This document shows positions 3,326 through 61,162 of a DNA stretch of 64,000 bases, piece after piece. The position numbers were made by a program, and so were the translations under genes. Origin of the DNA: Escherichia coli (GTDB lineage Bacteria; Pseudomonadota; Gammaproteobacteria; Enterobacterales; Enterobacteriaceae); assembly GCF_013315695.1 (NCBI RefSeq), contig NZ_CP054353.1. One strand, given 5' to 3'. The notes beneath the pieces were generated by a model, which did not search any database, had not been told where the DNA came from, and saw nothing but the letters and a program-made list of their open reading frames with translations. Numbering within the stretch: position 1 is the first letter of the stretch; each line of letters starts with the position of its first letter.

Positions 3326-4520
<1,195 letters not shown>

Positions 4521-4649
4521 CTTGTGAGTCCATTAAAACCCGATTTAAAACATTTTTATGCGTGTGTTTTCACAAAACAGATTTTCCGTTCCGCTGCCAT
4601 TTTTCATTTTCATTGATATCTAAGGCAACAAAAAATGGAGAGCCGAATC

Positions 4650-5672
4650 ATGTCTACGATGAATGTTTTAATTTGCCAGCAGCCGAAAGAATTAGTCTGG
4701 AAACAACGCGAGATACCTATTCCGGGTGACAATGAAGCATTAATAAAAATTAAGTCTGTCGGGATTTGCGGTACCGATATTCATGCCTGGGGTGGACATC
4801 AACCATTTTTTAGTTATCCACGGGTTTTAGGCCATGAAATATGTGGGGAGATTGTTGGGCTGGGTAAAAATATTGCTGATCTTAAAAATGGTCAGCAAGT
4901 TGCTGTGATCCCTTATGTTGCCTGTCAGCAATGCCCAGCGTGTAAAAGCGGTCGTACCAATTGCTGTGAAAAAATTTCAGTCATCGGCGTGCATCAGGAT
5001 GGCGGTTTTAGTGAGTATTTGAGCGTGCCGGTGGCGAACATTTTGCCCGCAGACGGTATTGACCCGCAGGCGGCCGCATTGATTGAACCTTTCGCTATTA
5101 GCGCTCATGCGGTGCGTCGCGCAGCCATTGCTCCCGGCGAGCAGGTGCTGGTGGTCGGGGCGGGGCCAATCGGTCTGGGCGCGGCGGCAATCGCTAAAGC
5201 CGATGGCGCACAGGTGGTGGTGGCGGATACCAGTCCGGCGCGCCGTGAACATGTGGCAACGCGTCTGGAGTTGCCCGTGCTGGACCCGTCAGCCGAAGAT
5301 TTTGACGCGCAGCTGCGGGCGCAGTTTGGTGGTTCGCTGGCGCAGAAAGTGATCGACGCGACAGGTAATCAACATGCGATGAATAACACCGTGAATCTGA
5401 TTCGTCACGGCGGCACGGTGGTATTTGTCGGCCTGTTTAAAGGTGAGTTGCAGTTCTCCGATCCGGAATTCCATAAAAAAGAAACGACGATGATGGGCAG
5501 CCGCAACGCCACGCCGGAAGATTTCGCTAAAGTCGGTCGACTGATGGCGGAAGGGAAAATCACTGCTGACATGATGTTAACCCATCGCTATCCGTTCGCC
5601 ACGCTGGCAGAAACCTACGAGCGCGATGTGATTAACAATCGTGATTTGATTAAGGGTGTAATTACTTTCTGA
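4650..5672 (+). CDS. lgoD: Zn-dependent L-galactonate 5-dehydrogenase (MDR alcohol dehydrogenase family)
   Basis: ORF with GHE..CG..C zinc-ADH motifs and GxGxxG Rossmann motif; ATG at 4650 preceded by ggag; track ORF starts 15 nt earlier. Confidence 0.85.
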   Translation: MSTMNVLICQQPKELVWKQREIPIPGDNEALIKIKSVGICGTDIHAWGGHQPFFSYPRVLGHEICGEIVGLGKNIADLKNGQQVAVIPYVACQQCPACKSGRTNCCEKISVIGVHQDGGFSEYLSVPVANILPADGIDPQAAALIEPFAISAHAVRRAAIAPGEQVLVVGAGPIGLGAAAIAKADGAQVVVADTSPARREHVATRLELPVLDPSAEDFDAQLRAQFGGSLAQKVIDATGNQHAMNNTVNLIRHGGTVVFVGLFKGELQFSDPEFHKKETTMMGSRNATPEDFAKVGRLMAEGKITADMMLTHRYPFATLAETYERDVINNRDLIKGVITF

Positions 5673-9636: not shown

Positions 9637-10176
9637 TTACCCTCTGAATCCTGGTGGAATTTGGCTGTCAGGTTCGCTGACCGTATTCACATCTCGTTTC
9701 GGCAGTCCGCCGTTGCTGGCACGGCCGATTTGCAGGCTGCGCGCCAGTTTTTGTTGCCACTGTACATGGTGAAAGACTTTACCTTCCGCCTGCCAGTAGG
9801 CAATGAATGAGGCCAGTTCTTCGGTGGTCACCGGCTCTCTTAGCGCCACGCCCCATAGCGCCGCCAGGCGGATAAAGTCGGCATCGGGTTGCCAGTCCGG
9901 ATACATGGCGAATTTCCCCATGGGTACAGCAACGGGAGCGGCTTGCGGTTCCTGATAGAGTTGATCGTCCAGAGCGACATCGCTTCCCGGACGCGCCAGC
10001 TTTTCTTCCAGCGCCAGCAGTTCAGCCAGGCGTGCAGGCGTGACGGCATAAAACGCCGGGGCATTGTTAGCAAATACGGCAACCACACCGCCTTCAGCTT
10101 TTGCCAGAACGGTTTGGTGATCGTGTACCAGGGCGTCAATACCAACGACGTCCGGGGTCAAAACTCTGGAAGACAT
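9637..10176 (-). CDS. dnaT: Primosomal protein DnaT
   Basis: ORF ...[23 protein letters not shown]...; immediately upstream of dnaC in same orientation. Confidence 0.9.
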
Positions 10177-10283
10177 ACTGTTTCTCAAATATGGAACGAT
10201 GAACGAGAAGGGAGATAACTTTTATAGTAACACATGGAGGAGAGGAGGCTGTCTCTCATCCGTGTGCTTTAAGCGAGGCAATT

Positions 10284-10757
10284 TTATACGCGAGGGCGCT
10301 TGCGGTACAACCATAATCCAGGAATGGAAAGACCGATGGATAACGCACCAACAATCGATGAAGCTGTAAGAAAGTTGGTTAACAGGGTAATCATCAATGA
10401 CTCGCTGTAACCTAACTGGCTGATTTTTACCGCCGAAATCATTGCGGTATAAGCCGATATGCCAGGGAACATAGGGATAACGGCCGCCACGGTAAACACT
10501 TTCGGATGCGCCAGATACCAGCGCGACCATTGAATACCAATGGTGCCGACCAGCATAGAAGCCATAAAAGTTGACCACTCAATATTCAGCCCGCTGGTCA
10601 TTAAGATCATTCGTGAACCATGACCAATCGCGCCAAGCAGCGCACACCAGCGTAACGCCCGAACGGGAACGTTGAACACCATCGCAAAGCCGACCGCTGG
10701 AATGGCGGCGAGGATCATATCCTGCGCCAATGTAAACAGAAACTCGATCACACCCAT
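10284..10757 (-). CDS. yjjB: Inner-membrane protein YjjB (putative succinate exporter subunit)
   Basis: Hydrophobic ORF of about 157 aa overlapping the end of yjjP. Confidence 0.8.
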
Positions 10758-11518
10758 CCGCGTAGCCCCCAAATCGTCAGTGCCATCACCACGCCGACGC
10801 AGGTAGCCAGTGTCAGCAGACTGGCGATCGCCCAGCGTGCCAGTCCGGTATTGATGTGGCCTTTAAACATATCGGCGACGGCATTAATCAACGGAAAGCC
10901 CGGCACCAGCAGCAGAACGCTGGCGGCCATCGCGATGGTGGGGGTATTGCTGAAAGTAGGGAGTTGCAAAAGCAATCCGGAAATGGTGGTGGCGGCGAAA
11001 GCGGTAAGGCAAAAGTTGATCTGTGGATGAAGATGACGTTGTGCCAGCAGCTGGCGGATATACATCGCGGCCGTACTGGCAAAGAAGGTGATGACGGCAC
11101 CATCCCAGCCACCTTTATTGAGTTTACAGAAACAGGCGCAGGAAAGGCCAACCATTAAGGCTACCAGCCATCTTGGGTAACGTAATGGCTGAATTTGGCT
11201 AAATCGTTTCTCTACGCCTTTGTAATCCAGCAGATGATGCTCCGCCAGAATCACAATGTGCTGGACTTCAGTCACCACATGCATATTAATGCCGCGATCT
11301 TGATTTTTACGTGTCGATGTCAGGCATTGCCCATCTTTAATGGTTGTCAGCACTATGGCGTTCGAAGAGATAGAACTTTCGACGCTGTCCATCCCCAACG
11401 CCCGACCCAGTCGTGAGGAAAGCTCATCAACCAACGCGCTTTCCGCACCATGTTGCAAAAGAAATAATCCACACTGGATACAAAGCCGTGTTACGGCTCG
11501 CTGTTGCTCAGTTTGCAT
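10748..11518 (-). CDS. yjjP: Inner-membrane protein YjjP (putative succinate exporter subunit)
   Basis: Membrane ORF; start taken at [12 protein letters not shown]...; track ORF extends 21 codons further upstream. Confidence 0.8.
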
Positions 11519-12137
11519 AACTCGCCCTTTGTCATAGACGTGCTGCGTATTGTTCAGATAATGAGAATCCATTTGTATCATGAAGCACGGTTGTTTTGCG
11601 GTAGGTTAAGATCAAAATTGCGCTGATTAATCCTGGTTATCGGGAGATGCTCGGTGATAAAAAGCGAATTATCTCTCGCCGTAAACAAACTATCGCATGA
11701 ATATTATCACTATAATGAATTTGTTATTTGGCCTTTACGAGTCAGGATAATAGATAGCTGGGCGCGTTTTTTTATGTTAACAAGTTAAAACCATCAGATT
11801 TTATTGAATAAATATTGATTGTGTGATTCCCGCACTCTGCGGGAAGAGATATCATTTAATTATAAATTAAATGAATGAGATTTCTGTTTTTCATTAAGTA
11901 TTTCTAACAACTTAATGTAGATATTTTAAATGTCTCCAGGCTATTTCACCAGGTTATCATTTGATGCTAACCTTCTGACACATGCAGTGGAGTTGTTGTG
12001 CAGCAGGAGTATGCTGATATGAAAGTGAATGCTAAGGATAATTTATTCGCTTAATCTATTAATTTGCTGGAAATATTTAAGGAATGAATACCTTGAATAA
12101 ACCATCATGATTTTTAGACAGTGGATGTGGAGGAAAT

Positions 12138-12863
12138 ATGTTGCCAGGATGCTGCAAAAATGGAATTGTTATCAGTAAAATACCTGTTATGCAAGCAGGG
12201 TTAAAAGAGGTCATGAGGACTCACTTCCCTGAATATGAAATAATATCCAGCGCCTCTGCGGAGGACCTTACCTTATTACAATTACGTCGTTCCGGATTAG
12301 TCATTGCTGATTTGGCCGGTGAAAGTGAAGATCCACGTTCCGTTTGTGAGCATTATTACTCTTTAATCTCACAATATCGGGAAATTCACTGGGTTTTCAT
12401 GGTGTCACGCTCCTGGTATTCCCAGGCAGTAGAATTGCTCATGTGCCCTACGGCGACGTTATTGTCTGATGTTGAACCCATTGAGAATCTGGTCAAGACC
12501 GTACGTTCCGGCAATACGCACTCAGAGCGTATCAGCGCCATGCTGACCTCTCCGGCAATGACTGAAACTCATGATTTTAGCTATCGCTCCGTCATTCTCA
12601 CTCTTTCAGAGCGCAAGGTACTGCGGCTATTAGGTAAAGGATGGGGCATCAACCAGATAGCTTCATTGCTTAAGAAAAGTAATAAAACTATTAGCGCCCA
12701 AAAAAACAGTGCGATGCGTCGACTGGCAATTCACAGCAACGCTGAAATGTATGCATGGATAAATAGCGCGCAGGGTGCAAGAGAACTTAACTTGCCTTCT
12801 GTTTATGGAGATGCCGCAGAATGGAACACAGCCGAATTAAGAAGAGAAATGTCGCACTCATAG
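12138..12863 (+). CDS. yjjQ: LuxR-family transcriptional regulator
   Basis: 241-aa ORF with C-terminal LuxR-type HTH; AT-rich gene preceded by a long AT-rich intergenic region. Confidence 0.85.
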
Positions 12864-13498
12864 AAAAATGCGTCATGAGTCGTATCGGTATTGAGAGTTT
12901 ATTCAGAAAGTTTGCAGGTAACCCTTATAAGCTCCATACCTATACCAGTCAGGAGTCATTTCAGGATGCCATGTCGCGGATCTCGTTTGCAGCGGTCATT
13001 TTTTCTTTTTCTGCCATGAGAAGTGCGCGCAGAGAGGGATTATCCTGCCTGACTGAACTGGCGATTAAGTTTCCGCGTACCCGGCGTTTAGTTATTGCGG
13101 ATGATGATATTGAAGCTCGGCTGATTGGTTCATTATCGCCATCACCGCTGGACGGTGTATTAAGTAAAGCGTCAACGCTGGAGATTTTTCATCAGGAACT
13201 CTTTTTGTCATTAAATGGTGTACGTCAGGCGACCGATCGACTGAACAATCAGTGGTACATTAACCAAAGCCGGACGTTAAGCCCGACGGAGAGAGAAATA
13301 TTGCGCTTTATGTCGCGTGGCTACTCAATGACACAAATTGCCGAGCAGCTTAAACGCAATATCAAAACGATCCGTGCACATAAATTTAATGTGATGTCGA
13401 AACTGGGCGTCAGTTCTGATGCAGGGTTGTTGGAGGCCGCAGATATTCTGTTATGTATGCGGCATTGCGAAACAAGTAATGTGTTGCATCCTTATTAA
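12821..13498 (+). CDS. bglJ: LuxR-family regulator BglJ (partner of RcsB)
   Basis: 225-aa [23 protein letters not shown]... overlapping yjjQ 3' end; C-terminal LuxR HTH. Confidence 0.85.
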
Positions 13499-13535
13499 TC
13501 CGCATGATGCCGGGTTTACTTCCCCGGCAGTGCTT

Positions 13536-14324
13536 TCATTTCAGCGTACAATCGCCACATTGCTGCACATCCGGTAAGCGATAACGCTGGCAGCAAGTGC
13601 GGCGCACCAGCAGGCCGTCGCGTAGCACCACGGTACGCCAGAGTGGATTATCTTCACCGGTAGTAAGCGTTTTCTCAAAAAAGAGGGCATAGCGCAGCGA
13701 TTCAACCGTCGCCTCGCCGAGCAGCTGTTTCATCTCAGTCAGATACCAGTTGATCAAATAACCGGTATTGCTCCAGATAAGTTTGCCGTTAATCTCTCCC
13801 GTTGCTTCTAGTGCCTGCACAACCGGAACCAGCGCCTGGCTGATTAACGTTTCCATTCGCTGCTGCAGCGAATGTAGTGTTGCGTTTTTATCTTCACACA
13901 CATCGACCCAGAAACAGGCGGCGCGTCCGGTTTCGTGAAACTCAACGTGGACATGTTCCGGCGACACATCTAATGCTTTTTCCTGAGTCAGCAGCGCCAG
14001 CATTAATGGTGGTACCATCAGGCCGATATACCATTGCGCCCACAGTGAGATCAGCGGTTTGTTTTCGCGGATCATCAAAGGTTGGTTGCGGTAGATATGA
14101 TCGGAATAGACTGCGAGTAGAGAACTTAGCGCATTAGGTGATGACCATTGCGCCAGCGTCATGGCGTTAAGTGGGGCGGGTTCATCCAGGCGGATAAACT
14201 CCAGCAAATGTTCACGATGTTCGGCGATCGTCGCCCGCACGGCTTGTGCAAGCCCAGCATCCTGCGGCTGGAGATGCGTTCGCCAGATAACATCTTCATA
14301 GAGCGGTGCGGAACGATAGGCCAT
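13536..14324 (-). CDS. fhuF: Ferric-siderophore reductase FhuF (2Fe-2S)
   Basis: 262-aa ORF ending with C-C-x10-C-x2-C cluster motif (CCQRYRLPDVQQCGDCTL). Confidence 0.9.
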   Translation of the reverse strand: MAYRSAPLYEDVIWRTHLQPQDAGLAQAVRATIAEHREHLLEFIRLDEPAPLNAMTLAQWSSPNALSSLLAVYSDHIYRNQPLMIRENKPLISLWAQWYIGLMVPPLMLALLTQEKALDVSPEHVHVEFHETGRAACFWVDVCEDKNATLHSLQQRMETLISQALVPVVQALEATGEINGKLIWSNTGYLINWYLTEMKQLLGEATVESLRYALFFEKTLTTGEDNPLWRTVVLRDGLLVRRTCCQRYRLPDVQQCGDCTLK

Positions 14325-14407
14325 AATCGTGATAGTAATCTAAATGATAATTATTGCTAATCCTATCGATAGGTTTACCCGATAGCAAGGGATTTCTCTG
14401 GCTTGCA

Positions 14408-14448
14408 AATGATAAAAATTATCATATGATATTAGTTATCATTATCAA
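14408..14448. promoter_or_regulatory. Fur-box-like AT-rich repeats in the fhuF/yjjZ divergent intergenic region
   Basis: gataaaaattatcatatgatattagttatcattatc resembles overlapping gataat/attatc Fur hexamers; directly upstream of the yjjZ ATG. Confidence 0.6.
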
Positions 14449-14464
14449 TGAAAGAGATGAAACC

Positions 14465-14701
14465 ATGTTGCAACGTACGCTGGGCAGTGGCTGGGGAGTG
14501 TTGCTGCCGGGATTGCTGATTGCAGGGCTGATGTATGCGGATTTATCGCCGGATCAATGGCGGATTGTCATTCTGATGGGATTGGTATTGACGCCGGTGA
14601 TGCTGTATCACAAACAGTTACGGCATTACGTTTTGCTACCATCGTGCCTGGCGCTTATTGCTGGCATCATGCTGATGATAATGAATTTGAATCAGGGGTG
14701 A
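14465..14701 (+). CDS. yjjZ: Small membrane protein YjjZ
   Basis: 78-aa ORF from ATG 14465 (MLQRTLGSGWGVLLPGLLIAGLMY...); track ORF starts further upstream. Confidence 0.7.
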   Translation: MLQRTLGSGWGVLLPGLLIAGLMYADLSPDQWRIVILMGLVLTPVMLYHKQLRHYVLLPSCLALIAGIMLMIMNLNQG

Positions 14702-14739
14702 TAAAACAGTGAGGAGACAAGAAAAGAAGTAAAGATAAT

Positions 14740-14826
14740 TGGTGCGAGGGGGGGGACTTGAACCCCCACGTCCGTAAGGACACTAACACCTGAAGCTAGC
14801 GCGTCTACCAATTCCGCCACCTTCGC
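14740..14826 (-). tRNA. leuV: tRNA-Leu (CAG), tandem copy 1
   Basis: Reverse complement reads GCGAAGGTGGCGGAATTGGTAGACGCGCTAGCTTCAGGTGTTAGTGTCCTTACGGACGTGGGGGTTCAAGTCCCCCCCCTCGCACCA, 87 nt; gene-name assignment among the copies is arbitrary. Confidence 0.95.
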
Positions 14827-14860
14827 ACAGTCATCTTACTTTTTTTGATATCGCCTCGTT

Positions 14861-14947
14861 TGGTGCGAGGGGGGGGACTTGAACCCCCACGTCCGTAAGG
14901 ACACTAACACCTGAAGCTAGCGCGTCTACCAATTCCGCCACCTTCGC
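14861..14947 (-). tRNA. leuP: tRNA-Leu (CAG), tandem copy 2
   Basis: Identical 87-nt sequence and identical 34-bp spacer to copy 1. Confidence 0.95.
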
Positions 14948-14981
14948 ACAGTCATCTTACTTTTTTTGATATCGCCTCGTT

Positions 14982-15069
14982 TGGTGCGAGGGGGGGGGAC
15001 TTGAACCCCCACGTCCGTAAGGACACTAACACCTGAAGCTAGCGCCTCTACCAATTCCGCCACCTTCGC
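14982..15069 (-). tRNA. tRNA-Leu (CAG)-like, divergent tandem copy 3 (88 nt)
   Basis: Same unit but with a 9-C run instead of 8 in the T-stem/acceptor region and one D-arm substitution (GGTAGAGGCGC versus GGTAGACGCGC). Confidence 0.75.
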
Positions 15070-15097
15070 CCAGTGCGAGCAATATCAACGTGGTTTT

Positions 15098-15184
15098 TGG
15101 TGCGAGGGGGGGGACTTGAACCCCCACGTCCGTAAGGACACTAACACCTGAAGCTAGCGCGTCTACCAATTCCGCCACCTTCGC
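15098..15184 (-). tRNA. leuQ: tRNA-Leu (CAG), promoter-proximal copy 4
   Basis: Identical 87-nt tRNA-Leu sequence; 28-bp spacer to copy 3. Confidence 0.95.
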
Positions 15185-15225
15185 ATACCATCAATTCTTA
15201 AAAAGAATTGCTACCACGGAGGCGC

Positions 15226-15253
15226 ATTCTAGTGGTTTTCAGCTTTTCGTCAA
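15226..15253 (-). promoter_or_regulatory. Sigma-70 promoter of the tRNA-Leu operon with GC-rich discriminator
   Basis: Minus strand reads TTGACG-16 bp-TAGAAT followed by GCGCCTCC; an AT-rich tract lies further upstream. Confidence 0.65.
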
Positions 15254-15383
15254 TAGTTAATTATCGACAGAGGTGTAATTGCTGGAAAAATGTCCATCAG
15301 CGGATTGTGGATAATTCGTTTGTCGGTCAGATAAGGCATGTACGCCGCATCCGACACGGTATGCGGCGACATATATCAGATAC

Positions 15384-16415
15384 TCAACCTTTCTTCGCCT
15401 GGCGGGTCATAATGGCGCGATACACCTTGAAGCGCCCGGTTTGCGCAATCACTTCGTGGAAACCAAATGTCTCATCCAGCACGTCCGGGTAAGGCAGGAA
15501 GGCGTTCGCTACAATTCGCAACTCGCCGCCGCTGTTAAGATGACGCACCGCGCCGCGAATCAGCGTTTGCGCCGCATCCAGGCTGGTTTGCATCCCATCG
15601 TGGAACGGCGGGTTGGAGATTATCATATCAAAGCGACCTTTCACCTCGGAAAAGACGTTGCTGGCAAAGACTTCACCTTCAACACTGTTGGCAGCAAGTG
15701 TTGCGCGACTGGCTTCTACCGCTGGTGCAGAGACATCGCACAGAGTGAGGCGGATCTTCGGTGAATGGCGCGCAAAAGCAACGGAAAGCACTCCCGCGCC
15801 GCAGCCGACATCCAGCACTTTACCTTTCGTGTGTGGAGTTAGCGTCGAGAGCAGCAACTGACTGCCGACATCCAGACCGTCGCGGCTAAACACGCCCGGC
15901 AGTGTTTTGACCGTCAAGCCATCGACGCTGTATTCGCCCCAGAATTTATTGGCATCAAATACCGGCTGCTTTTCCAGACGACCAAAATAGAGGCCACAGC
16001 GACGGGCGCTGTCCACCTTATTCAACGGTGCATAATCGGCCAGCATCTGCTCGGCGCTGCGCACGCCGCTGCGGTTCTCGCCAACGACAAAAATATCCGT
16101 GCCCACTGGCAGCAGAGAAAGTAAATTCATCAACTGGAACTGGGCTTCCGGTTTGTTCTTCGGCCAGTAGTAAATCAGCGTATCGCAATCTGCGACATCA
16201 TTCGCCGTGGCGACCAGACTAAAACGGGCGTTATCCCCCATCTGGCGGCTTAACACCTGCCAGTGGTGGAATTGCTGGGTATGAGCACGGCTGGCCGCGG
16301 TATCTAAACGCGCGGGCAGGTCATCCTGTAAGTCTCCGGCAAACAGAATACGGCTTTGTTCGAAATCATCACTGTGACGCAGCAAGACTTCACTTGCCGG
16401 GGTAAATGCAGACAT
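15384..16415 (-). CDS. rsmC: 16S rRNA (guanine1207-N2)-methyltransferase
   Basis: 343-aa ORF with SAM-binding motif [12 protein letters not shown] and NPPFH. Confidence 0.9.
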
Positions 16416-48585: not shown

Positions 48586-48680
48586 GTTTGCTACCTAAAT
48601 TGCCAACTAAATCGAAACAGGAAGTACAAAAGTCCCTGACCTGCCTGATGCATGCTGCAAATTAACATGATCGGCGTAAC

Positions 48681-48821
48681 ATGACTAAAGTACGTAATTG
48701 CGTTCTTGATGCACTTTCCATCAACGTCAACAACATCATTAGCTTGGTCGTGGGTACTTTCCCTCAGGACCCGACAGTGTCAAAAACGGCTGTCATCCTA
48801 ACCATTTTAACAGCAACATAA
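48681..48821 (+). CDS. yjjY: Small protein YjjY
   Basis: 46-aa ORF MTKVRNCVLDALSINVNNIISLVVGTFPQDPTVSKTAVILTILTAT, below the 60-aa cutoff of the ORF track. Confidence 0.5.
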   Translation: MTKVRNCVLDALSINVNNIISLVVGTFPQDPTVSKTAVILTILTAT

Positions 48822-49220
48822 CAGGCTAAGAGGGGCCGGACACCCAATAAAACTACGCTTCGTTGACATATATCAAGTTCAATTGTAGCACGTTAACAGT
48901 TTGATGAAATCATCGTATCTAAATGCTAGCTTTCGTCACATTATTTTAATAATCCAACTAGTTGCATCATACAACTAATAAACGTGGTGAATCCAATTGT
49001 CGAGATTTATTTTTTATAAAATTATCCTAAGTAAACAGAAGGATATGTAGCATTTTTTAACAATTAAACCGTTAGTACAGTAAGGAAATAGTTTAGCCTT
49101 TTTTAAGCTAAGTAAAGGGCTTTTTCTGCGACTTACGTTAAGAATTTGTAAATTCGCACCGCGTAATAAGTTGACAGTGATCACCCGGTTCGCGGTTATT
49201 TGATCAAGAAGAGTGGCAAT

Positions 49221-59736: not shown

Positions 59737-61162
59737 TAATGCCAGTCAGTTAAGCAACTGACTGGCTCTTTTTCGGGGCTGTGGGGTATTTCCAGGGCCT
59801 CTCCTTTACCACTCTCGGGAAGGCCCTTTCCCTTCTTGTCGGTAATTTCACAAGTTGTCCCATACTTGCAAGATCGCGCATCAGCTCCGGTATACGTCCC
59901 GGTGAAGCGCCCTGCAATGTCATCAGCATTCTCATCACCATTCCGCATGATTCTGAGAAACTCAGTTGATTCGGCCAGTAACCTTTCAGATGTTCCGCCA
60001 TTTTAATCATCTGATATCTCACCAGATTATAAGCCAGTAAGACACCCCACAGCTCTTGCTCCACAAGCTCCGGTTTTTTACTTCTCAGCGTCAGCCTGCT
60101 CAGTTGCATCGTCTGTTTTATCTCCCTGTATCCCAGTTCGATTTCCCAGCGATGACTGTACAGATCCGCCATTTCTCCTCCGGGGAAGCGCATGGCGTCC
60201 GTCATCGACGTCAGCAGATGGCAGACTTTTCCTTTGCGCGTCACGGTCAGCAGGCGGGCTGTCACTTCATTTCCCAGTCCCGGCCACTTTTTTCGTGCCT
60301 GCGGGCTGGTTTTCAGCTTCACCAGATGATCGCCTTTACCCAGTTTTCTGATCTCTTCATATTGCGCTCCCTTTCTGAGAGGTATCATCCAGTGGCGGTG
60401 TTCTCCCGCCAGGCTCCAGGCATTTAACAGTCCCAGTGAGTAATAACCTTTATCCATTAACGTCAGAGTGTTATCGCCGGTTTGTTCTATAAGTTGCTCA
60501 GCAAGCTCATTTTCGCTGTTCTTCATCGTGCCGAAGGCTGCAGCCGTCAGCAGATGGCTGGTCAGTTCCATCTGGCAGACCATTTTGACCTGCGGGTAGA
60601 GCGCCGGGTTCCCGGCATGTGTCTGGCGGGGGAAGGCTGCATCGTTCTCTGGTGTATCCGGTGTGCGCCAGAACACACCATCGATGGCCAGCAGGGTCAG
60701 GCCGCACCAGTGCGGATGCGGCGTGGCGTTATGCCAGAGCTGCGCTGTTTTCGTGAACACGCGGCGGACAGCCTCACTTCCCAGGCGCTGGCGGGCCTGA
60801 ATAACGGCACTGGGGGCAACGAAGGGGCGATTGCCCGGCAGCATGATGTCCAGGCGATTCACAATCTGGTGAAGAGGTTCTTTACGCTCAAGCGCCATGC
60901 CAACAATACACCAGACCATCATTTCGAGGGGAAGACGGCGCTTGCGTAGCGTTACAGTACCTGATTCGGCAAGGCAACGAGAGATGAGTTCGGGGTCGAG
61001 GTAATCCCCCAGAGAAGTCAGTGGGTTACGCAGAGAATCGTAACGGGATACCAGATCAAGAGCCTGTCCAATGTGCATAAAAAAATCCGGAAACAAGTGA
61101 GCGTTTCCGGATTCTTACACAGCCACTGGATCGGTCAACTGATCCTTAACTGATCGGCATTA
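59737..61162 (-). mobile_element. IS4 insertion sequence, complete (1426 bp), flanked by 12-bp direct repeats
   Basis: 18-bp terminal inverted repeats taatgccagtcagttaag / cttaactgatcggcatta; identical 12-mer ccccgggcgggg at 59725-59736 and 61163-61174. Confidence 0.9.
59750..61078 (-). CDS. insG: IS4 transposase (DDE, IS4 family)
   Basis: 442-aa from [16 protein letters not shown]...; contains HRWEIE...YREIK motif of IS4-family transposases. Confidence 0.9.

Follow-up and report, generated by a model that had tools for sequence, protein, structure and literature searches.

The window, by which we mean the whole 64-kb stretch of Escherichia coli DNA that was analyzed, carries yjjP and the yjjQ-bglJ pair in divergent orientation on either side of an AT-rich spacer. 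These genes are annotated at their window coordinates by a RefSeq record of an E. coli chromosome with 100% identity, which bears out the positions and the yjjQ and bglJ identities given in the first-pass annotation. yjjP (10748 to 11518, minus strand) codes for a ThrE-family exporter subunit (Pfam ThrE, E = 3e-69). yjjQ (12138 to 12863, plus strand) encodes a LuxR/FixJ-type transcription factor of 241 amino acids and is preceded by a ribosome-binding site, GGAGGA, at 12129 to 12134. bglJ (12821 to 13498, plus strand) encodes a LuxR/FixJ-type activator of 225 amino acids, and its first 43 nt lie within the 3' end of yjjQ. The overlapping start is supported because conservation across genera begins at residues 8 to 10, upstream of the internal Met19.

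With the shorter yjjP of the RefSeq annotation, the intergenic regulatory region spans 11519 to 12137 and measures 619 bp at 34.6% GC; if the longer yjjP open reading frame starting at 11581 is taken, the spacer is 556 bp. Stratmann and colleagues reportedly gave a length of ∼555 bp in 2008, which fits the longer reading frame. No annotated feature falls within the spacer, which 5,410 of 5,423 E. coli genomes carry uninterrupted; it is broken in roughly 13 to 19 genomes. According to published work, H-NS binds this silencer region, which holds both of the predicted divergent promoters.

The YjjQ and BglJ proteins

Both proteins carry a C-terminal GerE helix-turn-helix (PF00196, cut-off 23.5 bits), detected at residues 153 to 206 of YjjQ (E = 6.6e-8, 32.5 bits) and at residues 152 to 203 of BglJ (E = 1.2e-12, 47.7 bits). 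They share this domain with FixJ/NarL (LuxR C-terminal) regulators, notably RcsB and proteins that assist it such as RcsA, and the best relatives among solved structures in the PDB were the RcsB DNA-binding domain for YjjQ and RcsB for BglJ. In a possible departure from the FixJ/NarL family, the N-terminal halves of YjjQ and BglJ matched no Pfam receiver model (Response_reg). Residues 12 to 210 of YjjQ aligned weakly to full-length NarL (E = 0.0045). BglJ works as a heteromer with RcsB (PMC3950696). An origin of the pair by tandem duplication was considered and found unsupported, as YjjQ and BglJ align only over 53 residues of the helix-turn-helix (40% identity); any duplication would therefore be too old to show.

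Base composition and codon usage

The first-pass annotation had described the spacer and the two genes as markedly AT-rich compared with the flanking core genes, and this was confirmed. The GC content of the interval 11519 to 13498 is 41.8%, against 52.0% for the window. In a sliding-window profile, no other 1,980-bp segment fell lower (mean, 52.1%; SD, 2.7), and the interval does not stand at the genome average. The spacer is the most AT-rich part, followed by bglJ (44.8% GC) and yjjQ (45.0%), and the neighboring genes stand at 51.3% (yjjP), 50.9% (yjjB), 53.0% (fhuF), and 56.7% (dnaT). Among the 51 open reading frames of at least 150 amino acids in the window, yjjQ and bglJ ranked lowest for GC content, for GC3 (0.442 and 0.465; mean, 0.586; SD, 0.047), and for codon adaptation index calculated with hand-entered weights (CAI, 0.215 and 0.198; mean, 0.353), and a measure internal to the window rated their codon usage as the least typical. 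GC1 was depressed as well, indicating that the amino acid composition of both proteins is also AT-shifted.

Such a profile could mark the segment as a horizontally acquired islet, that is, xenogeneic DNA silenced by H-NS because it is foreign, as the first-pass annotation had proposed. The bottom ranking of both genes in GC, GC3, CAI, and codon typicality and the depressed GC1 agree with that proposal, as does the shape of the GC profile, which climbs back at gene boundaries on both sides, namely, at the start of yjjP to the left and at the stop codon of bglJ to the right. We nevertheless consider an imported islet unlikely, on the evidence of distribution and substitution patterns given below.

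H-NS silencing and elements of the spacer

The E. coli K-12 yjjP/yjjQ-bglJ region is the same locus, with like genes, gene order, overlap, and spacer. What has been published on repression by H-NS, antagonism by LeuO, and the function of BglJ-RcsB applies directly here. The evidence for H-NS binding and derepression comes from K-12, to whose spacer type that of the window strain is about 96% identical. The region is thus an already well-studied control region in which silencing by H-NS is established biology, as the first-pass annotation had supposed and as experiments on the same operon document (PMC5025477, PMC3950696, and PMC3946193). Repression of yjjQ-bglJ by H-NS and activation by LeuO are attributed to Stratmann et al. 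2008 in the passages of PMC5025477 and PMC3950696 that summarize that work; the operon is silent under laboratory conditions (PMC5025477) and "would otherwise be expressed" in an hns stpA mutant (PMC3950696). A genomic SELEX study flagged the spacer, listed as yjjP<HNS>yjjQ, as containing an H-NS binding site (Table 1 of PMC3946193), and yjjP is tied to H-NS control by that source and by the wording of the title of Stratmann 2008.

In the circuit as published, H-NS binds the 619-bp, 34.6%-GC spacer, keeps yjjQ-bglJ off under laboratory conditions, and also represses the divergent yjjP. The LysR-type regulator LeuO, itself repressed by H-NS, counteracts this, and BglJ, once made, pairs with RcsB and switches on bgl, leuO, and some ten further loci. 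H-NS binding sites at yjjP/yjjQ-bglJ were reportedly mapped by Stratmann, Madhusudan, and Schnetz in 2008 (J Bacteriol 190:926).

The region had also been described as full of A/T tracts likely to nucleate H-NS binding. In the spacer, 156 nt fall within A/T-only stretches of 6 or more bases, compared with a window mean of 38 nt (top 0.4%), so the tracts are indeed dense. Mononucleotide shuffles of the spacer, however, gave 131 ± 20 nt in such tracts (p about 0.1); the tracts therefore follow from composition alone, and enrichment beyond composition was rejected. Homopolymeric A4/T4 runs were ordinary in number (9, against a mean of 6). The longest A/T-only tract, ATTTAATTATAAATTAAAT (11854 to 11872, 19 nt), overlaps the -10 hexamer of the predicted yjjP promoter. 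A search of the spacer for TCGATAAATT-like sequence, which we take to be the high-affinity nucleation motif of H-NS, yielded no site with one mismatch or fewer and two sites with two mismatches, the latter at about chance density. Since H-NS can bind without this motif, the lack of a match is compatible with the H-NS-silenced status of the operon, but with no near-motif site and a tract density explained by composition, sequence alone pinpoints no nucleation site. The dense tracts thus stood, and their nucleation of H-NS in the spacer is plausible, but they are no denser than composition predicts.

A consensus scan predicted a σ70 promoter for yjjQ-bglJ at 12014 to 12042 on the plus strand (CTGATA-17-GATAAT, -10 hexamer at 12037 to 12042), identical to the promoter predicted in PMC3946193. 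Its GGATAA core is invariant in 10 spacers from Escherichia, Salmonella, and Citrobacter. Scans of 11300 to 13700 for σ70 promoters and intrinsic terminators returned background counts (7 against 5.2 expected and 3 against 2.5, respectively), and of the consensus-scan sites, only the one matching the published prediction was retained. The predicted yjjP promoter, whose sequence is given in PMC3946193, lies at 11866 to 11894 on the minus strand (ATGAAA-17-TTTAAT) and matches once in the whole window.

Within the otherwise fast-diverging spacer, a conserved block, TAGATATTTTAAATGT, is located at 11918 to 11933. Most of its positions are invariant across the 10 spacers from three genera, and within E. 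coli it is fully invariant, which makes it a candidate site for protein binding or nucleation. A GC-rich perfect hairpin, TTCCCGCA-CTC-TGCGGGAA, lies at 11827 to 11845, midway along the AT-rich spacer (RNA fold, -12.5 kcal/mol; z = -3.3). It is perfect in the source strain and in O157:H7, whereas a K-12-type strain, an isolate from chicken, and the other Escherichia species have degraded versions. Being polymorphic within E. coli and absent as such from the other Escherichia species, it was rejected as a conserved structured element. An Rfam scan of 10000 to 16000 at a permissive E-value found no RNA family in the spacer; its only matches were tRNA genes and a subthreshold naRNA4 match outside the region. 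The window comes from a clinical-type strain distinct from K-12, and over the stretch it is identical to a UK blood-culture isolate.

Distribution, synteny, and substitution patterns

The locus belongs to the core genome of E. coli, being found in 5,424 of the 5,426 complete genomes. For a wider view, we used the 80 best YjjP matches, all from core Enterobacteriaceae, and found yjjQ and bglJ divergent to yjjP in 75 of these 80 species-level loci, representing at least 17 genera. The other five comprised four loci with truncated flanks and one with bglJ only, so that position and orientation beside yjjP were the same in all 75 assessable species. In every one of these, the GC content of the pair was below that of the flanks (mean difference, -0.090 for yjjQ and -0.074 for bglJ); the mean GC3 deficit was -0.19 for yjjQ and -0.145 for bglJ, and the deficit relative to the flanks was never smaller than -0.036.

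Some features of the surroundings would suit an imported islet. A tRNA-Leu array follows about 1.2 kb downstream, adjacent gene content differs among genera (some carry, and others lack, genes for a PTS EIIC and a YbaK-like protein, or for an FAD monooxygenase and an AraC regulator), and YjjQ and BglJ diverge much faster than their neighbors, with mean identities of 63% and 53% compared with 87 to 92%. Yet fhuF and yjjZ sit between the pair and the tRNA genes, no integrase or transposase is annotated between dnaC and rsmC, and no repeats bracketing the AT-rich segment were found. Apparent matches to plasmid-borne yjjQ were discarded, being only mislabeled chromosome-sized records (15 of 17 nonmobilizable) and distant LuxR paralogues, which leaves no true plasmid copies.

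The divergence of the pair also follows that of its flanks: identity to E. coli tracked flank identity with Spearman coefficients of 0.71 (yjjQ) and 0.61 (bglJ). Within Escherichia, dN/dS was 0.04 to 0.08 for yjjQ and bglJ, compared with 0.01 to 0.10 for the flanks (up to 0.22 for dnaT), and by this measure the pair is under purifying selection. A yjjQ value of 0.32 in one locus (L003) was set aside, since the match to this copy contains an in-frame stop and the alignment was corrupted.

Parsimony over 18 sister pairs counted 441 synonymous AT-to-GC (W>S) changes in yjjQ-bglJ and 447 GC-to-AT (S>W) changes. AT-to-GC changes are thus not in excess, and the balance indicates that no amelioration is under way. 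The equilibrium GC3 of the pair was 0.484 (bootstrap, 0.445 to 0.524) against a current GC3 of 0.487, although the flanks show an S>W excess, which means that the absolute equilibrium values are biased and only the contrast between pair and flanks is robust. As judged from these substitution patterns, the pair is shown here to be at a stable low-GC compositional equilibrium.

Near-universal presence in E. coli, synteny in 75 species, balanced substitutions, and the absence of mobility genes leave the horizontally acquired signature of the first-pass annotation unsupported as something recent or islet-like. Recent acquisition of yjjQ-bglJ appears effectively excluded by these genome comparisons, and an acquisition that predates the radiation of the sampled Enterobacteriaceae is possible.

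Discussion

We conclude that the AT-richness of the yjjP/yjjQ-bglJ control region has very probably been maintained for a long time under H-NS control and does not reflect an unameliorated import. AT-richness would then be a long-kept property of the locus that holds yjjQ-bglJ under H-NS control. The only new point of our analysis, and a modest one, is that this AT-richness has been conserved and stands at equilibrium; the rest is known and ordinary. The composition could be selected for H-NS control, or it could persist because an operon that is permanently silent is spared whatever raises GC3 elsewhere.

The latter possibility amounts to AT-richness as a passive by-product: a permanently silent, very weakly expressed operon under little codon or GC selection would be held by AT-biased mutation at a lower GC equilibrium, and H-NS binding would be a consequence as much as a cause. 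Silence of the pair under laboratory conditions (PMC5025477) and its CAI values, the lowest in the window, are in line with this account. So are the substitution rates per site, since W>S changes occur in the pair at the rate of the flanks (0.068 compared with 0.069) and S>W changes at a higher one (0.072 compared with 0.059), a pattern that resembles weaker retention of G and C and not a special push toward A and T. However, yjjB and yjjP, also of low CAI (about 0.24), keep GC3 values of 0.57 and 0.56, and creB has a CAI of 0.23 yet a GC3 of 0.63. The depression of first codon positions in yjjQ and bglJ is also at odds with a by-product, as are the occurrence of the deficit in all 75 species, even in hosts with a flank GC3 of 0.80, and the noncoding spacer, which at 34.6% GC is far more AT-rich than the equilibrium GC3 of either gene class. 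On balance, we are doubtful of the by-product account as the explanation. It and long maintenance under H-NS control are not mutually exclusive.

We suggest only tentatively that the low GC of yjjQ-bglJ and the spacer may be a conserved and selected regulatory trait, by which a core regulator operon found throughout the family would stay "foreign-looking" for H-NS until LeuO or another counter-silencer acts. The universal deficit in the 75 species, the steady-state composition, and the strong purifying selection make such a trait compatible with the data but leave it unproven. If selection does maintain it, composition would belong to the way the operon is regulated instead of being left over from an import.

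Such long maintenance under H-NS control would set the locus apart from classical cases of xenogeneic silencing, such as the Salmonella pathogenicity islands, with which it shares a low GC content relative to the host, binding of H-NS, and a dedicated counter-silencer, here LeuO. Unlike such islands, yjjQ-bglJ lacks a patchy distribution, mobility genes, bracketing repeats, and signs of amelioration; it goes back to the ancestor of the sampled Enterobacteriaceae and is stable in composition. The locus can therefore serve as a calibration case for genome scans, in which low GC and H-NS silencing alone do not equal recent horizontal transfer. Because the mean GC3 deficit of 0.15 to 0.19 has been kept, unameliorated, in every species examined, composition-based island callers will wrongly flag yjjQ-bglJ as foreign.

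Close parallels are the bgl operon and leuO, "cryptic" loci of the same circuit that likewise have AT-rich regulatory DNA and are silenced by H-NS under laboratory conditions. LeuO, BglJ-RcsB, or both together lift their silencing, as do IS insertions (PMC2646131 and PMC5025477). Some E. coli phylogroups have an eroded bgl operon or have lost it, and its horizontal acquisition has been suggested (PMC2646131); in contrast, yjjQ-bglJ occurs in nearly all E. coli and keeps its synteny throughout the family. As already published, BglJ-RcsB and LeuO together form a silenced switch that reaches bgl, leuO, and envelope- and motility-related genes; the BglJ-RcsB regulon comprises bgl, leuO, and about ten other loci (PMC3950696), and YjjQ is reported to repress flagellar synthesis (PMC8516962). 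In the mouse gut, IS elements inserted into the yjjP/yjjQ spacer were likewise favored by selection and proved adaptive (PMC5094792).

Layout and composition of the yjjQ-bglJ locus

The window is E. coli chromosome. Its stretch at 10500-14500 has 100% identity to the isolate AF3 chromosome (NZ_OZ547117.1), and matches to it occur in 5,424 of 5,426 complete E. coli genomes, most of them with 95-99% identity. In the annotation of the AF3 record, dnaC, dnaT, yjjB, and yjjP lie on the minus strand, followed by yjjQ and bglJ on the plus strand and then by fhuF, yjjZ, tRNA-Leu genes, and rsmC. A 619-bp spacer (11519-12137) separates yjjP (10748-11518, minus strand) from yjjQ (12138-12863, plus strand), which overlaps bglJ (12821-13498, plus strand) by 43 nt; the coordinates and gene names of the first-pass annotation agree exactly with this layout. 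An alternative, longer yjjP open reading frame (ORF) extends to 11581 and would shorten the spacer to 556 bp. H-NS reportedly binds the centre of the AT-rich spacer, put at ∼555 bp.

The first-pass annotation had described an AT-rich islet here, and both a GC plot and a comparison of codon adaptation index (CAI) came out as it had predicted. Positions 11519-13498 have a GC content of 41.8%, compared to 52.0% for the window, and form the lowest-GC 1,980-bp window of the 64 kb (mean of all such windows, 52.1%; SD, 2.7). GC falls to 34.6% in the spacer, with 200-bp windows down to 29%, is 45.0% in yjjQ and 44.8% in bglJ compared to 50.2-57.2% in the six neighbouring genes, and climbs back where yjjP begins and where bglJ ends. 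Of the 51 ORFs that are 150 aa or longer, yjjQ and bglJ are lowest in GC and in GC3 (0.442 and 0.465, respectively; mean, 0.586; SD, 0.047), and their GC1 is also low. They likewise have the lowest CAI (0.215 and 0.198, respectively; mean, 0.353), calculated with Sharp-Li weights, and a likelihood measure internal to the window ranks their codon usage as least typical. The description of the spacer as full of A/T tracts holds in that A/T-only runs of at least 6 nt span 156 nt of it (top 0.4% of the window), the longest being a 19-nt run at 11854-11872, but it does not hold beyond composition: shuffled spacers yield 131 ± 20 nt of such runs, and the tracts are thus the chance yield of 35%-GC sequence. 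Homopolymer runs of A or T occur in ordinary number.

An ancestral locus of the sampled Enterobacteriaceae

We surveyed 100,044 species genomes with YjjP as the anchor, taking one locus per species with 10-kb flanks, and analyzed the best 80 YjjP-matched loci. These represent at least 17 named genera, including Escherichia, Salmonella, Citrobacter, Enterobacter, Klebsiella, Raoultella, Kluyvera, Kosakonia, Leclercia, Lelliottia, and Phytobacter. Both yjjQ and bglJ were found divergent to yjjP in 75 of the 80 loci; of the remaining five, four are missing the upstream flank and the fifth has bglJ with no detectable yjjQ. In all 75 loci both genes are AT-richer than the flanking genes, with mean differences of −0.090 (yjjQ) and −0.074 (bglJ) in GC and of −0.19 and −0.145, respectively, in GC3. 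The difference from the flanks was never smaller than −0.036, even at a flank GC3 of 0.80, and the spacer, where short (370-710 bp), has 30-44% GC.

Protein identity to E. coli follows that of the flanks (Spearman, 0.71 and 0.61 for YjjQ and BglJ, respectively), but the two proteins diverge faster, with mean identities of 63% for YjjQ and 53% for BglJ compared to 87-92% for the flanks. In comparisons within Escherichia, yjjQ has a dN/dS of 0.07 and bglJ one of 0.04-0.08, inside the range of most flanking genes (0.01-0.10; dnaT reaches 0.22); one corrupted value was left out. The annotation holds no mobility genes between dnaC and rsmC, and no repeats bracketing the segment were found. Plasmid-borne copies were considered and rejected, the 17 matches in the plasmid database being "plasmids" of 0.37-4.9 Mb or distant paralogues.

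An import drifting to host composition should give an excess of AT-to-GC changes. From codon alignments of eight genes in up to 81 taxa, we took 18 sister pairs that were mutually nearest, added an outgroup to each, and polarized synonymous third-position changes by parsimony. Across these sister pairs, yjjQ and bglJ together showed no AT-to-GC excess (441 AT-to-GC versus 447 GC-to-AT; P = 0.87), whereas the flanks had 899 AT-to-GC versus 1,548 GC-to-AT changes (Fisher P = 2e-11 for the contrast in direction). Equilibrium GC3 was 0.484 for the pair (bootstrap, 0.445-0.524; current GC3 at those sites, 0.487) and 0.541 for the flanks (current, 0.670), values not to be over-read in absolute terms, since parsimony is biased and the flanks show a GC-to-AT excess.

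The proposal that this DNA was horizontally acquired is therefore unsupported, given the conserved synteny, the flank-tracking divergence, the lack of mobility genes and repeats in the segment, and the absence of amelioration. The locus was already present in the ancestor of the sampled Enterobacteriaceae, has been inherited vertically and maintained by selection, and is stable in composition; it may have been acquired before they radiated. Its lasting AT-richness may be kept up by selection for silencing, or may follow passively from the operon being permanently silent.

Silencing and fine structure of the spacer

Silencing of the yjjQ-bglJ operon by H-NS, which the first-pass annotation had put forward, is known biology already published for this exact operon (PMC5025477, PMC3950696, PMC3946193). 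H-NS repression is dominant and keeps the locus off (PMC5025477), and LeuO is the sole known activator (PMC3950696); both papers cite Stratmann, Madhusudan, and Schnetz (2008, J Bacteriol 190:926), whose title concerns H-NS and LeuO regulation of yjjQ-bglJ and divergent yjjP. Table 1 of PMC3946193 lists the spacer as yjjP < HNS > yjjQ at 99.15 min, "HNS" denoting in its legend spacers that include H-NS binding sites. According to this literature, H-NS silences the divergent AT-rich promoter region and LeuO counters it. While E. coli was adapting to the gut of mice, IS insertions in this spacer were recurrently selected (PMC5094792). Among 5,423 E. coli genomes, 13 have no intact spacer, taken as a single match over at least 80% of its length, and matching places exceed records by 19. 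These counts suggest that the silencer region is on rare occasions hit by natural insertions or deletions, which could derepress yjjQ-bglJ or yjjP, like the laboratory and mouse-gut IS insertions.

The yjjP promoter predicted in PMC3946193 (ATGAAA-17-TTTAAT) has a single occurrence in the window (11866-11894, minus strand), and the yjjQ-bglJ promoter predicted there (CTGATA-17-GATAAT) lies at 12014-12042, the same site that a consensus scan returned. Across Escherichia, Salmonella, and Citrobacter, the spacer centre is poorly conserved; conserved are the yjjP-proximal end, the ribosome-binding site, one block (TAGATATTTTAAATGT, 11918-11933), and, in the predicted −10 hexamer of yjjQ, its GGATAA core. 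E. coli strains hardly vary in the promoter-proximal right half (∼11848-12137), and polymorphism clusters at ∼11640-11850. Positions 11827-11845 form a perfect GC hairpin with a good predicted fold; we set it aside as a lineage polymorphism, degraded in K-12-type strains and missing from other Escherichia species.

YjjQ, BglJ, and their neighbourhood

Both proteins carry a C-terminal LuxR/GerE helix-turn-helix (HTH), and their closest solved structure is RcsB, which fits the published BglJ-RcsB heteromer; their resemblance to each other is limited to 53 HTH residues. BglJ is conserved across genera from residue 8-10 onward, a point upstream of the internal Met19, and this supports the annotated overlapping bglJ start. 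Decay of yjjQ is occasional: in Escherichia locus L003 of the survey, yjjQ (3623-4342) has an in-frame stop, Enterobacter sp. Bisph1 (locus L034) has bglJ and no detectable yjjQ, and the yjjQ of the K-12-type strain ER1709 (locus L084, 719-818) carries the annotation "frameshifted". These are candidate pseudogenizations or sequencing errors.

In most other genera, a PTS EIIC gene and a gene for a YbaK-like tRNA-editing domain (tRNA_edit) lie between bglJ and fhuF; Salmonella has the YbaK-like gene only, and Escherichia has neither, with a gap of ∼44 bp. In Klebsiella, Raoultella, Kluyvera, and the C. amalonaticus group, an FAD-binding monooxygenase gene and an AraC regulator gene lie between yjjP and yjjQ. 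Examples of such variable cargo are found in surveyed loci L058 (3873-6012 and 7641-9723) and L010 (7395-7919). The surroundings are thus plastic and the pair itself is persistent.

Other features of the window

The fhuF-yjjZ intergenic region contains overlapping AT-rich palindromes (14358-14448; e.g., TTGCAAATGATAAAAATTATCATATGA / TCATATGATATTAGTTATCATTATCAA), putative Fur boxes that resemble the GATAATGATAATCATTATC consensus and would presumably serve the iron-regulated fhuF promoter. A tandem array of four tRNA-Leu(CAG) genes at 116- to 121-bp spacing follows at 14740-15184 (minus strand); the AF3 record annotates only two there, with rsmC shifted by exactly 237 bp, or two units. K-12 has three genes (leuQPV) in this array. 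The difference reflects either copy-number variation or assembly collapse.

An IS5-like ISKpn26-family transposase gene lies between lgoT and lgoD (3394-4374, plus strand), adjoined by a stretch of ∼40% GC (4350-4900). No lgoR is annotated between lgoT and lgoD in the matching record, and this is the position that lgoR (yjjM) occupies in K-12; the IS may have replaced or disrupted this L-galactonate regulator gene. The matching record also annotates an IS4-family transposase between mog and satP (59750-61078, minus strand). Second in AT-richness within the window is the arcA-yjjY-yjtD intergenic region (∼48586-49220; 500-bp GC down to 0.36). In the mouse-gut evolution study with insertions in the yjjP-yjjQ spacer, IS elements also recurrently hit the arcA regulatory region and yjjY (PMC5094792).
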